From the sequence record MG488277: DNA of 39,919 nt; one strand, given 5' to 3'. This stretch comes from Escherichia phage EG1. This document shows, one piece after another, positions 2,433 to 18,423 of the stretch. Each line of letters begins with the position of its first letter. Positions within the stretch are counted from its first letter, which is position 1. The position numbers and the translations under genes were made by a program. The notes under the pieces are model-generated. The model was not told where the DNA came from, did not search any database, and saw only the letters and a program-made list of their open reading frames with translations.

Positions 2433-2563
2433 AATACTACGTTATGCCTATCCACACCAAGAACGGCGCTACAGTTTGCACACCTGATGGCTTCGCAATG
2501 AAACAACGAATCGAACGCCTTAAGCGTGAACTGCGCACCAATCGCAAGCTCAACAACATCTAA
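2426..2563 (+). CDS. 0.6: gp0.6-like protein
   Basis: MLKYYVMPIHTKNGATVCTPDGFAMKQRIERLKRELRTNRKLNNI resembles T7 gp0.6 N-terminal part; alternative start at 2444. Confidence 0.7.
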   Translation: MLKYYVMPIHTKNGATVCTPDGFAMKQRIERLKRELRTNRKLNNI

Positions 2564-2582
2564 TTACATTTGACACTGGAGA

Positions 2583-3671
2583 ATGCACAAAGTGAACGCT
2601 ATCGACATCATGAACGCTATCAACGCAATCAAAGCACTGCCAATCTGTGAACTTGATAAGCGTCAAAGTATGCTCATTGATTTGCTGGTCGAGATGGTCA
2701 ACAACGAAACGTGTGACGGTGAAATCACCAAGCTGGATAAGCCGCTTGAATATCAGGACTGGTGGACTACCTTAAGAGGTCTCACTACTGACGCTGGCTT
2801 CACGATGCTCGGTAATGGTCACTTCTCTGCTGCATATAGTCACCCACTGCTGCCTAACAGAGTGATTAAGGTGGGCTTTAAGAAAGAGGATTCAGGCGCT
2901 GCGTATATCGCATTCTGCCGCATGTATCAGGGCCGCGCTGGTATCCCTAACGTCTACGACGTTCAGCGTCATTCTGGCTGCTATACGGTGGTTCTTGATG
3001 CTCTGAATGAATGTGAGCGAGAGGATAACTATGAGCACGACAAATACGCTGAGATTGCAAGCGACATCATTGACTGCAACTCTGATATGCACGATTGGCG
3101 TGGCGGATGGGTTGGGGAGTTCGTCGAAACTTGCAAACTAATCCGCAAGTTCTTTGAGGGCATCGCTTCGTTTGACATGCACAGCGGTAACATCATGTTC
3201 GACGATAATGACGTACCGTACATTACCGACCCGGTGTCATTCTCACAGAAGAAAGACGGTGGCGCTTTCAGCATGGACCCTGAGGAACTCATCAAGGAAG
3301 TCGAGGAAGTCGCACGACAGAAAGAAATTGACCGCGCCAAGGAGCGTAAAGCACGCCATGTAGCACGCTTAGAGGTGCGCAGAATCAAACGCCGTAGACG
3401 CAAGGCACGTAAAGCACACATAGCTAAGCGTGAACGAATGGCGGCCCAGTGGCGCATGAACGAGCGTCGAGAACGTCGTAACCATGAGGTAGCTGTAGAT
3501 GTACTAGGAAGAACCAATAACGCTATGCTCTGGGCGCACATGTTCGCGGGGGACTTTAAGGCGCTTGAGGAACGAATCGCAGCGCACTGGTTCCAAGCTG
3601 ACCGCATGGCCATAGCTAATGGTCTTCAGCTCAACATTGATAAGAAACTGGACGCAATGCTAATGGGATGA
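2583..3671 (+). CDS. 0.7: Ser/Thr protein kinase and host-shutoff protein (gene 0.7)
   Basis: 362 aa; ...[21 protein letters not shown]...[32 protein letters not shown]... matches T7 gp0.7; exact start uncertain. Confidence 0.9.
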
Positions 3672-14451: not shown

Positions 14452-16608
14452 ATGATCGTTTCTGACATCGAAGCTAACGCCCTCTTAGAGAGCGTCACTA
14501 AGTTCCACTGCGGGGTTATCTACGACTACTCCACCGCTGAGTACGTAAGCTACCGTCCGAGTGACTTCGGTGCGTATCTGGATGCGCTGGAAGCCGAGGT
14601 TGCACGAGGCGGTCTTATTGTGTTTCACAACGGCCACAAGTATGACGTTCCTGCATTGACCAAACTGGCAAAGTTGCAATTGAACCGAGAGTTCCACCTT
14701 CCTCGTGAGAACTGTATCGACACACTTGTGTTGTCACGCTTGATTCACTCCAACCTGAAAGACACCGATATGGGTCTTCTGCGTTCCGGTAAGTTGCCCG
14801 GTAAACGCTTTGGGTCTCACGCTTTGGAGGCGTGGGGCTATCGCTTAGGTGAAATGAAGGGTGAATACAAGGATGACTTTAAGCGTATGCTTGAAGAGCA
14901 AGGTGAAGAATACGTTGACGGAATGGAATGGTGGAACTTCAACGAAGAGATGATGACCTATAACGTTCAGGACGTTGTGGTCACTAAGGCTCTCCTTGAG
15001 AAGCTGCTCTCTGACAAACATTACTTCCCTCCTGAGATTGACTTTACGGACGTAGGATACACTACGTTCTGGTCAGAATCCCTTGAGGCCGTTGACGTTG
15101 AACATCGCGCTGCGTGGCTACTCGCTAAGCAAGAGCGCAATGGATTCCCGTTTGACACGAAAGCAATCGAAGAGTTGTACGTAGAGTTAGCTGCTCGTCG
15201 CTCAGAGTTGCTGCGTAAGCTGACCGAAACGTTCGGCTCGTGGTATCAGCCTAAAGGTGGCACCGAAATGTTCTGCCATCCGAGGACTGGTAAGCCACTG
15301 CCTAAATACCCTCGCATTAAGACACCTAAAGTTGGTGGTATCTTTAAGAAGCCTAAGAACAAGGCACAACGAGAAGGCCGTGAGCCTTGCGAACTGGATA
15401 CCCGCGAGTACGTTGCTGGTGCCCCCTATACTCCGGTAGAGCACGTAGTGTTTAACCCTTCGTCTCGTGACCACATCCAGAAGAAACTCCAAGAGGCTGG
15501 ATGGGTCCCCACGAAGTACACCGATAAGGGTGCGCCTGTGGTGGACGATGAGGTCCTAGAGGGAGTAAAAGTAGATGACCCTGAGAAGCAAGCCGCTATC
15601 GATCTTATTAAAGAATACTTGATGATTCAGAAGCGAATCGGACAGTCTGCTGAGGGAGACAAGGCGTGGCTTCGTTACGTTGCTGAGGATGGTAAAATTC
15701 ATGGTTCTGTTAATCCCAACGGCGCTGTTACTGGGCGCGCTACTCACGCTTTCCCTAACCTTGCACAGATACCCGGTGTCCGCTCTCCTTATGGTGATCG
15801 GTGCCGCTCTGCTTTTGGCGCTGAACATCACCTAGACGGACTTACAGGTAAGCCTTGGGTTCAAGCTGGTATAGACGCCTCTGGTCTGGAGCTGCGATGC
15901 TTGGCCCACTTCATGGCTCGCTTTGACAACGGTGAGTATGCTCACGAGATTCTAAACGGTGACATCCACTGGAAGAACGCAATTGCTGCTGACTTAGCAC
16001 CAAACATTGCTCGTGATAAGCATAATAAGGAACACGACCTAATGCGTGATAACGCCAAGACGTTTATCTATGGGTTCCTCTATGGTGCTGGCGATGAGAA
16101 GACTGGTCAGATTGTAGGTGCTGGTAAAGAACGTGGTAAGGAACTCAAGAAGAAATTCCTTGAGAACACCCCAGCTATTGCTGCACTACGAGAGTCTATC
16201 CAACAGACACTTGTTGAGTCCTCTCAGTGGGTAGCTGGTGAACAGCAAGTCAAGTGGAAACGTCGCTGGATTAAAGGTCTGGATGGTCGTAAGGTACACG
16301 TCCGTAGTCCTCACGCTGCCCTGAATACCCTGCTGCAATCTGCTGGTGCTCTAATCTGCAAACTGTGGATTATCAAGACAGAAGAGATGCTCGTGGAGAA
16401 AGGCTTGAAGCATGGTTGGGATGGGGACTTTGCGTACATGGCATGGGTCCACGATGAGATTCAGGTAGGTTGTCGTACCGAAGAGATTGCTCAGGTGGTC
16501 ATTGAGACTGCACAGGAAGCGATGCGCTGGGTAGGAGACCACTGGAACTTCCGGTGTCTTCTGGATACCGAAGGTAAGATTGGTCCTAATTGGGCCGTAT
16601 GTCACTAA
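14452..16608 (+). CDS. 5: DNA polymerase (gene 5), family A with 3'-5' exonuclease and thioredoxin-binding loop
   Basis: 718 aa; [27 protein letters not shown]...; near-identical to T7 gp5 except a ~14-aa insertion before the O-helix. Confidence 0.97.
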
Positions 16609-16627
16609 TTCTAACAGGAGCCACTTT

Positions 16628-16855
16628 ATGGCATGGCGATATAGGATTCGAGAAGTCAGAATGACTACAGGTGAGACCTTATACTACCCACAGTTCCGTC
16701 ATGTGTGGCTCCCATTCTGGTGCCACTTTAGGGACTACCTAGAAGAACGTAAGGTGTCATTCACCTATTATTCTGATGCGCTTGAATTCGTTAATGAATG
16801 TAAATCAAATGATGAACCAGAAGTAAAGCAGGTTGTAAGAAACCACTATCTTTAA
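16628..16855 (+). CDS. Hypothetical protein at gene 5.3 position
   Basis: 75 aa from ATG 16628 (MAWRYRIREVRMTTGETLYYPQFRHVW...), SD caggag; shorter than T7 gp5.3. Confidence 0.55.
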   Translation: MAWRYRIREVRMTTGETLYYPQFRHVWLPFWCHFRDYLEERKVSFTYYSDALEFVNECKSNDEPEVKQVVRNHYL

Positions 16856-17534: not shown

Positions 17535-18423
17535 CCTTAAACAGTTCTATGAGTTACGTGAAGGTTGTAACGACAAAGGTATCCTTGTGATGGACGGTGA
17601 CTGGCTGGTATTCCAAGCTATGAGTGCTGCCGAGTTTGATGCCTCTTGGGAGGAAGAGATTTGGCACCGATGCTGTGACCACGCTAAGGCACGTAAGATT
17701 CTGGAGGATTCCATCAAGTCCTATGAGACCCGTAAGAAGGCTTGGGTAGGTGCCCCGATTGTCCTTGCGTTCACAGATAGTGTCAACTGGCGTAAAGAAC
17801 TGGTAGACCCTAACTACAAGGCTAACCGTAAGGCCACGAAGAAACCTGTAGGTTACTTTGAGTTCCTTGAGGCTCTCTTTGAGCGCGAAGAGTTCTACTG
17901 CATTCGTGAGCCGATGCTTGAGGGTGATGACGTTATGGGAGTGATTGCTTCCAATCCGTCTGCCTTCGGTGCCCGTAAAGCTGTAATTATCTCGTGCGAT
18001 AAGGACTTTAAGACCATCCCTAACTGTGATTTCCTGTGGTGTACCACTGGTAACATCCTGACTCAGACCGAAGAGTCCGCTGACTGGTGGCACCTCTTCC
18101 AGACAATCAAGGGTGACATTACCGATGGTTACTCAGGTATTGCCGGATGGGGCGATACTGCCGAGGACTTCCTGAATAACCCGTTCATTACCGAGCCTAA
18201 AACGTCTGTGCTTAAGTCTGGTAAGAACAAAGGCCAAGAGGTTACTAAGTGGGTTAAGCGCGACCCTGAGCCACATGAGACGCTATGGGACTGTATTAAG
18301 TCCATTGGCGCTAAGGCTGGTATGACCGAAGAGGATGTTATCAAGCAGGGCCAGATGGCTCGCATCCTGCGGTTCAACGAGTACAACTTTATTGACAAGG
18401 AGATTTACCTGTGGAGACCGTAG
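17521..18423 (+). CDS. 6: 5'-3' exonuclease (gene 6)
   Basis: 300 aa MALLDLKQFYELREGCNDKGILVMDGDWLVFQAMSA... Confidence 0.95.
   Translation: MALLDLKQFYELREGCNDKGILVMDGDWLVFQAMSAAEFDASWEEEIWHRCCDHAKARKILEDSIKSYETRKKAWVGAPIVLAFTDSVNWRKELVDPNYKANRKATKKPVGYFEFLEALFEREEFYCIREPMLEGDDVMGVIASNPSAFGARKAVIISCDKDFKTIPNCDFLWCTTGNILTQTEESADWWHLFQTIKGDITDGYSGIAGWGDTAEDFLNNPFITEPKTSVLKSGKNKGQEVTKWVKRDPEPHETLWDCIKSIGAKAGMTEEDVIKQGQMARILRFNEYNFIDKEIYLWRP

Follow-up and report, generated by a model that had tools for sequence, protein, structure and literature searches.

The extra residues ahead of the O-helix in the DNA polymerase of Escherichia phage EG1 are a long variant of a fingers connector that is exchanged among T7-like phages

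Gene 5 of Escherichia phage EG1 encodes a DNA polymerase of 718 aa, against 704 aa for gp5 of phage T7. A preliminary description of the locus ascribed this difference to a discrete insertion of 14 residues in the fingers subdomain, just upstream of the O-helix. The locus raises the questions of what these residues are, whether they were gained by EG1 or lost by T7, and what they may do so close to the nucleotide-binding residues of the enzyme. We analysed a window of 39,919 nucleotides of EG1 (sequence record MG488277), and positions below refer to this window unless gene, protein or T7 coordinates are indicated.

The two lengths were confirmed by the open reading frame listing and by an end-to-end alignment, in which residues 1-718 of the EG1 product aligned on residues 1-704 of T7 gp5 (6n7w_H/2ajq_A; 1611 bits) in a phmmer search of PDB chain sequences. 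Pfam family PF00476 matched aa 333-715 with 161.9 bits (cut-off, 34.3), and PF13482 was also matched. Polymerase motif A (D475), motif B (R532/K536/Y540/Y544-G545) and motif C (H667-D668-E669) were all present, and their residues occupied nearly invariant columns in an alignment of 149 sequences; the columns of R532, K536, Y540 and Y544 were almost without variation. All the catalytic residues of this long-form polymerase are intact. Residues 262-338, which correspond to the thioredoxin-binding insertion of the thumb, were essentially identical to T7 in the phmmer alignment. Outside a short patch around the additional residues, the protein showed about 98% identity to T7 gp5 and most of the remaining DNA differences were silent, in line with the earlier remark that the rest of the protein is almost unchanged. 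An AlphaFold2 (AF2) model of the protein matched T7 gp5 structures with TM scores of 0.85-0.93 (Foldseek). In the reclassification of family A polymerases by Czernecki et al. 2023, the T7-like PolA subfamily is cluster #5 (cd08643); that paper characterises it as replicative polymerases of phages with a Tyr at motif B position 3 and a thioredoxin-binding insertion in the thumb (PMC10201439). The Tyr at this position in EG1 is Y540, the counterpart of T7 Y526. Judged from its sequence, the 718-aa protein is a family A polymerase of the T7-like replicative PolA subfamily, and it is very likely to have polymerase activity given its 98% identity to the active T7 enzyme.

The only gap in the alignment with T7 gp5 was one of 14 residues, placed by phmmer between IAAELP and TRDNAK of T7, and the same result was obtained with the fingers fragment alone. 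The gap lies between T7 P516 and T517/R518, directly ahead of the O-helix. Comparison with the DNA of T7 gene 5 (NC_001604, 14353-16467) also revealed a single gap of 42 nt, with 92% identity elsewhere. Its exact position varies by a few bases with the method: HMMER assigned the extra residues to aa 517-530 (16000-16041), while MAFFT on DNA placed the gap at 15997-16038. Both placements fall inside the span of 15990-16050 originally proposed. The pairwise alignment thus bears out one gap at the expected place instead of small indels spread along the protein, and the possibility that the T7 reference contains the same segment is dismissed by its absence from T7 gp5. The site is indeed directly upstream of the O-helix Arg, Lys and Tyr, which are R518/K522/Y526 in T7 and R532/K536/Y540 in EG1. 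The length difference is read directly from the alignment and is no matter of chance. The segment is in frame and was found in several independently sequenced genomes, and its changes among close relatives were mostly synonymous.

Table 1 Features of the gene 5 region of EG1 (window positions)
Feature	Position	Strand	Basis
Gene 5 homologue: T7-type (family A) DNA polymerase of 718 aa, including a 3'-5' exonuclease domain	14452..16608	+	ORF listing, T7 gp5 match, Pfam, AF2
42 extra nt (14 residues), both gap placements spanned	15997..16041	+	phmmer to T7 gp5, MAFFT DNA alignment
Core of long-form allele block, codons W507-M531	15970..16044	+	Fixed differences, five long vs five short Teseptimavirus gene 5
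Sites of block core: T507W; Q510A; E514D; 42-nt indel; T517M	15970-15972 (T507W); 15979-15981 (Q510A); 16042-16044 (T517M)	+	
Two more linked sites: synonymous change in codon 547; T551 (T7 I537T) in loop after helix O	16092..16103	+	
Predicted helix N, aa 505-512, with H506 (15967-15969) and form-specific W507	15964..15987	+	DSSP on AF2 model, pLDDT 96-97
Predicted ordered non-helical loop, aa 513-525, with R520-D521-K522 of W-type motif	15988..16026	+	AF2 pLDDT ~96; conservation in 36 W-type sequences
Predicted helix O, aa 526-543, beginning six residues (KEHDLM) ahead of R532	16027..16080	+	AF2 secondary structure
Helix O residues: conserved H527; catalytic R532, K536 and Y540	16045-16047 (R532); 16057-16059 (K536); 16069-16071 (Y540)	+	

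The additional residues belong to the connector that leads from helix N into helix O. In T7-family polymerases this connector sits at the tip of the fingers, which are mobile, and the residues represent a long version of it. We call this version W-type and define it by 24-27 residues from the histidine of the DIH motif to the O-helix Arg, a Trp right after DIH, a mid-loop R-D(-K) pair and a His 4-5 residues before the O-helix Arg. The EG1 connector has 25 residues with W507, R520-D521-K522 and H527. The motif can be written DIH-W..N..A..L.P...RDK.N..H...R. Protein alignment of the long form across genera gave DIHW(K/V/T)NA(I/V)AADLAP(N/D)(I/V).RDK....H(D/E).(M/C)RDNAK, and the consensus of 36 aligned divergent W-type sequences was DIH-W-.N.-.A.GL.P..T.RDK.N..H...R, with W, R-D and H present in about 80-100% of them.

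The long form proved to be widespread. A 63-aa probe was matched with 100% identity in Yersinia phage vB_Yep_9 (tblastn), and a 111-nt probe spanning the segment hit 127 phage records, 120 of them with at least 80% of the probe covered, including Klebsiella K5/KP32-type and P12 phages, Kayfunavirus/K1F, SRT7, NJ2 and phages of Pectobacterium, Citrobacter and Pseudomonas putida. The implication of the preliminary description that the insertion is distinctive of EG1 therefore fails, since the identical 63 aa occur in vB_Yep_9 and the long form in about 120 phage records. In megablast, the whole gene was matched without a break in CICC 80001, vB_Yep_9, Cedecea phage Yanou and "Enterococcus" phage EFA-2, and the match broke at the indel in most Teseptimavirus genomes. 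When 60 tblastn hits were evenly sampled from 1493 records, 16 had an ungapped long span (186-190 nt) and the others a short span (141-147 nt). In a pattern scan of the 120 nearest clusters at 90% identity, the DIH histidine and the O-helix Arg were separated by 11 residues in 115 clusters and by 25 in four. The one cluster that escaped the scan (P0013) was long by realignment, giving five long-form clusters.

At greater distances, we examined the best 150 representatives at 50% identity from a library of 1.8 billion proteins. The short form, with 10-11 residues (nearly all 11) and the motif T.NQ.AAGLPT, accounted for 85 of these 150. W-type connectors (24-27 residues, up to 36, with Trp first) accounted for 36, or about a quarter. 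Another long version, which we call S-type, has 24 residues with the motif S.N.RALG.DPK..Y...GK...G and was found in about 19 representatives; a few had intermediate lengths. The connector thus exists in two main forms, and three in all, which are discrete, conserved and ancient.

These data bear directly on the reading implied earlier, namely a recent, lineage-specific and de novo insertion in the EG1 phage. Such an event would agree with the lack of the segment in T7 and in most of the closest relatives (115 of the 120 nearest clusters are short). However, the W-type motif recurs in distant genera and among metagenomic lineages of less than 50% identity, and an identical or near-identical segment occurs in four other sequenced Teseptimavirus-like genomes. 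Nor was a duplication source detected nearby: the only direct repeat close to the segment is one of 11 nt with 82% identity, probably due to chance, and an origin by local duplication was rejected for want of any other nearby source. A recent de novo insertion is hence refuted by the distribution data, and we give this explanation next to no weight.

The 14-residue difference does not come alone. It is linked to five substitutions that are fixed between long and short alleles, T507W, Q510A, E514D, T517M and I537T in T7 numbering, so that flanks with T507, Q510, E514 and P516-T517 in the short form are replaced by flanks with W507, A510, D514 and M531 in the long form. The link of T551 (T7 I537T) is not strict in other genera, where short-form P0023 and P0092 also have T at this position. 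The earlier view of a discrete insertion is consequently right for a discrete difference of 14 aa from T7, but the change is not a clean insertion, as the flanking residues co-vary with it as an allele block. These linked substitutions had been missed in the preliminary description.

Comparisons of gene 5 and of whole genomes revealed how narrow this block is. Gene 5 of EG1 is a mosaic relative to T7, with 73-79% identity at gene nt 1258-1437 and 1483-1617 and 90-100% elsewhere, while vB_Yep_9 and CICC 80001 showed 90-99% identity to EG1 gene 5 throughout the indel region. When gene 5 was compared between five Teseptimavirus genomes of the long form and five of the short form, fixed differences were confined to gene nt 1519-1593, 1641 and 1652, and the remaining polymorphisms of the gene were common to both groups. 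We then projected the ten whole genomes on the window. Of 8978 polymorphic sites that were fully covered, 46 were fixed between long and short genomes, and 44 of these 46 fell in 15970-16103; the segment therefore behaves as a small recombining allele block. The other two were singletons (18369 and 31712) and represent no excess, given that all 126 possible five-versus-five partitions had a median of three fixed sites outside the patch. No co-segregating site was found elsewhere among the ten genomes, including the helicase-primase and single-strand-binding-protein genes.

The two forms also occur on closely similar backgrounds. The overall closest genome to EG1, vB_YenP_WW2 (93.6% identical across 95% of the first 25 kb), has the short form, and the EG1 protein pairs with short-form T7 at 98.3% identity outside the patch. 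The long-form proteins P0003, P0004 (NJ2), P0011 and P0013 likewise have short-form nearest neighbours, with 97.0-97.6% identity outside the patch, making five long/short backgrounds in all. In every case the indel comes together with the co-varying substitutions, so that these are exchanges of alleles, not insertions that arose independently several times. We conclude that the long form in this lineage is an allele block of 75-135 nt inside an otherwise T7-like gene 5, and that the connector block is exchanged by homologous recombination among T7-like phages.

The direction of the original length change is a separate question. The connector has 11 residues in T7, 25 in EG1 and 19 in Bst Pol I, which was aligned by HMMER along the long form (DIHTKTAM--DIF-QVSEDEV---TPNMRRQAK) and has in common with the EG1 polymerase the Met-Arg junction that leads into helix O. 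As the Bst Pol I connector has 19 residues and follows the long form, the short form of T7 may equally be a deletion, and the sequences are compatible with a derivation of the 11-residue connector of T7 by loss. The word "insertion" thus remains valid as a description relative to T7, but it should not be taken to indicate which form came earlier. A specific deletion between two Asp-Leu codon pairs was considered and rejected, because it would remove 15 residues instead of 14 and leave the changes at 507 and 510 unexplained. On a neighbour-joining tree of the polymerase domain of 144 representatives, with the connector patch excluded, the forms were scattered and parsimony required 46 changes of form compared with 56.7 ± 2.2 for shuffled labels, the tree being too star-like for rooting.

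We also considered whether the segment could be the footprint of a mobile element (an intein, a group I intron or a homing-endonuclease scar) or an embedded DNA or RNA signal. Gene 5 is interrupted by an HNH-containing element in some relatives, and motif B of one distant homologue contains an intein-like insertion. However, the interruption in the relatives lies at gene nt ~1983, about 440 nt downstream of the segment, which itself adds 14 residues in frame and bears a conserved protein motif. An intein would need an insertion of the size of a Hint domain (>130 aa) with splicing junctions, but only 14 residues and no additional Pfam domain are present. A group I intron or HNH insertion, as in WX2 at gene nt ~1983 (L002, about 2484-3072), is likewise excluded by the uninterrupted gene 5 of EG1. 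No inverted repeat or terminator-like site was found near the segment on either strand, and none of the 12 matches to T7-type promoters in the window was located in gene 5. The scanned region contains a single sigma-70-like match, located about 70-100 nt downstream of the segment on the minus strand, and such matches are expected at this frequency by chance. The probability of an element footprint or nucleic acid signal is accordingly negligible.

In the AF2 model, mean pLDDT was 93.9 and pTM was 0.90, with pLDDT values of 95-97 over aa 501-540, when 149 diverse sequences were supplied. With 33 close sequences, the mean pLDDT was 53.5. According to the model, the extra residues are predicted to form an ordered loop and about 1.5 added turns (six residues) at the N-terminal end of helix O, and the long connector is predicted to approach the length of that in bacterial Pol I. 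The closest Foldseek matches were the short-form T7 gp5 structures, followed by bacterial Pol I with TM scores of about 0.6; none of the solved structures near the 718-aa polymerase contained a W-type connector.

Several reports on T7 gp5 help to interpret this location. H506, R518, K522 and Y526 are hydrogen-bond donors that align the incoming dNTP, and H506 is a ligand of its phosphate (PMC5984650). A coumarin amino acid at position 514 reports closure of the fingers, in an enzyme that remains usable for kinetic work when labelled (PMC8715121). Since this bulky fluorescent reporter works at the edge of the indel, the site is on the moving part of the fingers and tolerates bulk. The connector would join two ligands of the dNTP phosphates, H506 and R532, and would ride on the part of the fingers that closes over the incoming nucleotide. 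From this link and this place on the closing fingers, the connector is most likely a structural variant that tunes closure. The long form may modestly tune the stability or kinetics of fingers closure and nucleotide binding, and the long and short forms would be functionally interchangeable with no new activity added. We therefore favour, with a probability of roughly 0.6, the interpretation that the W-type connector is a recombining structural variant at the tip of the fingers which adds no activity but tunes closure, a role that we infer from its position. A comparison of connector form with other polymerase positions in the diverse set singled out only the adjacent O-helix position R+2 (mutual information, 0.54); no convincing distant co-varying partner was found in the polymerase in that set, and form was not associated with the lengths of the thioredoxin-binding region, the exonuclease domain or the beta-hairpin.

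Other interpretations have to be weighed against this one. If the difference were a neutral variation in the length of a surface loop, spread by recombination without effect on the enzyme, the interchange of forms between backgrounds of 97-98% identity, with no compensating change elsewhere, would be readily understood, as would the tolerance of a bulky unnatural residue at the T7 site (PMC8715121). Neutral loops, however, do not retain both a motif (W, R-D-K, N, H) and a size of 24-27 residues among proteins that have diverged to below 50% identity. This conservation argues against a meaningless loop, and so do the ordered element predicted by AF2 (pLDDT ~96), the co-variation of the flanks 507, 510, 514 and 531 with the form and the mostly synonymous changes among close relatives, so that neutrality seems unlikely. 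The connector could instead be an interaction or recognition surface, with balancing or host-dependent selection keeping both forms. Its partner might be the adjacent helicase subunit or a different protein of the replisome, but also a factor of the host, such as a defence or inhibitor by which the phage polymerase is sensed or blocked. The persistence of both forms together in at least five pairs of nearly identical polymerase backgrounds from different genera would fit such a role, as would the conserved and charged motif residues and the very narrow, fully linked block with free recombination around it, as expected for an old selected polymorphism; the fingers are reported to touch a helicase subunit in one low-resolution replisome model (bioRxiv 10.64898/2026.05.20.726333). 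On the other hand, the lack of co-segregating sites in gp4, gp2.5 or elsewhere in the ten genomes argues against co-adaptation with a phage-encoded partner, and no host association is visible, as long and short Teseptimavirus phages both come from Escherichia, Yersinia and Cedecea hosts. The parts of gp5 reported to hold parental DNA or to contact gp4 are K545/K549/K553, the W579 hairpin, helix E* of the exonuclease domain and a front basic patch; the N-O connector loop is absent from the contact sites named in those papers, where the front basic patch is given without residues. A recognition surface is thus improbable in our assessment.

Two observations weigh against the favoured interpretation of a structural variant that tunes closure. 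The strong conservation of W507, R520-D521 and H527 in very divergent lineages could reflect a role more specific than passive structure, and balancing selection, not equivalence, might be the reason why the two forms have long coexisted in several genera. A more far-reaching proposal is that the dimorphism is an old balanced polymorphism in which the connector alters a selectable property and the alleles are kept across genera and passed on as a cassette of about 100 nt. We regard this proposal as rather doubtful; if it were true, the property in question could be nucleotide selectivity, performance under altered or depleted dNTP pools, or visibility to a host defence or inhibitor.

Compared with known systems, the EG1 polymerase is an ordinary T7-type enzyme, and its connector variant is already present in many deposited phage genomes. 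T7 gp5 (PDB 1T7P, 2AJQ, 6N7W) has the same exonuclease domain, thumb with thioredoxin-binding region, palm and fingers, and an identical O-helix. It differs in its connector of 11 residues (TKNQIAAELPT, between H506 and R518), in place of which EG1 has the 25-residue W-type connector together with W507, A510, D514, M531 and T551. The proteins of vB_Yep_9, CICC 80001 and Cedecea phage Yanou have the same 25-residue connector and motif and are 98.5-98.9% identical to that of EG1 over the whole length. Klebsiella KP32/K5/P12, Enterobacter NJ2 and Escherichia SRT7/K1F gp5 also have a 25-residue connector with the same motif, although the Klebsiella, Enterobacter and Foetvirus proteins show an overall identity of 76-86%, with other residues at about one third of the connector positions. 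The large fragments of bacterial Pol I (Bst BF, Klentaq, Klenow) show the same fold and a DIH...R..AK...(Y/F)G framework, with an overall identity to the EG1 polymerase of about 17% and a TM score of about 0.6. The W, R-D-K and H motif is missing from Bst Pol I, whose connector has six residues fewer than that of EG1. The connector of T7 is unusually short relative to Bst Pol I, and probably relative to bacterial Pol I generally. This corrects a T7-centred view of the locus, as in the comparison with Bst Pol I it is the T7 connector that is the short outlier. The passages of PMC10201439 retrieved by a term search describe insertions in the thumb, exonuclease and beta-hairpin and have no mention of the N-O connector dimorphism, and a full-text literature search for papers describing it returned only general T7 polymerase papers.

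For polymerase enzymologists, the repeated natural swaps between connectors of 11 and 25 residues in 97-98% identical backgrounds may be of modest value. The swap site includes T7 E514, where the fluorescent reporter of fingers closure has been placed, and a minimal pair of long and short forms would offer a ready test of the effect of the fingers tip on closure kinetics, fidelity and nucleotide selectivity. In composition, the 14 residues include three basic, three acidic and two His residues, and the G+C content of the segment is 42%, compared with 50% for gene 5.

Gene 5 of the window is a mosaic in more than its connector block. A second patch within the gene was 94-100% identical among the window, vB_Yep_9 and CICC 80001, and T7 and Yanou were just 77-79% identical to this group across it. 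This identity pattern shows that recombination breakpoints lie within the polymerase gene itself, independent of the block that holds the connector between helices N and O. In the comparison of five long-form with five short-form genomes, the only fixed differences beyond the connector block were at window positions 18369 and 31712. These are lone single positions, consistent with chance.

Coordinates of features in the window and in a related genome
Feature	Position	Strand	Remark
Matches to the consensus promoter of T7 RNA polymerase	381, 6402, 6476, 7243, 9947, 11634, 18545, 21492, 22527, 26893, 34221, 39205	+	
Second mosaic patch in gene 5	15709-15888		gene 5 nt 1258-1437
Site of the ~30-aa insertion of other polymerases	about 16112-16131		aligned to window aa ~555-560
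91-aa ORF	16580-16855	+	TTG start; overlaps the end of gene 5
Insertion in gene 5 of Yersinia phage vB_YenP_WX2 (L002)	about 2484-3072		

Other elements were observed in the polymerases of the T7 family. An insertion of ~30 aa between helices after helix O is common in polymerases with the long, W-type connector (representatives P0130-P0238). It was found in 20 of the 36 W-type representatives versus 10 of the 85 with the short form (Fisher's exact test: p = 1e-6), and is absent from the window and the other long forms of Studiervirinae. The W-type connector and this insertion, two elements of the fingers, may go together in other lineages. A third connector form of 24 residues, the S-type, was carried by about 19 of the 150 representatives (e.g. 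P0141, P0142, P0158, P0165 and P0190). Its consensus, S.N.RALG.DPK..Y...GK...G followed by RD.AKT, has no sequence relationship to the W-type. In P0247, a distant T7-like polymerase of 981 aa, an insertion of ~260 aa breaks the YG.GD motif inside motif B (Y-ACCTLD...VTGN-TIYGAGDEK). This insertion resembles an intein placed within the active-site motif of the polymerase.

Gene 5 of the window is uninterrupted. In some relatives, including vB_YenP_WX2, pO111, Bas103/Bas104 and HZP2, the gene is split at nt ~1983 by an insertion of ~600 bp annotated as an HNH endonuclease or a hypothetical protein. Group I introns with an HNH endonuclease are known in T7-like polymerase genes, and the insertion resembles these. 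Downstream, the 91-aa ORF, flanked by gene 5 and the gene 5.5 homologue, occupies the place that gene 5.3 has in T7; a Pfam search with this ORF gave no match.

The long connector is also present in 'Enterococcus phage EFA-2' (L018; MT350293), for which the recorded host is Enterococcus faecalis. Its genome is T7-like, with 87% identity to the window across 91% of its length. The host assignment seems doubtful. None of the 12 promoter matches of the window lies inside gene 5. Six are perfect, and the set fits a phage of T7-type promoter specificity.
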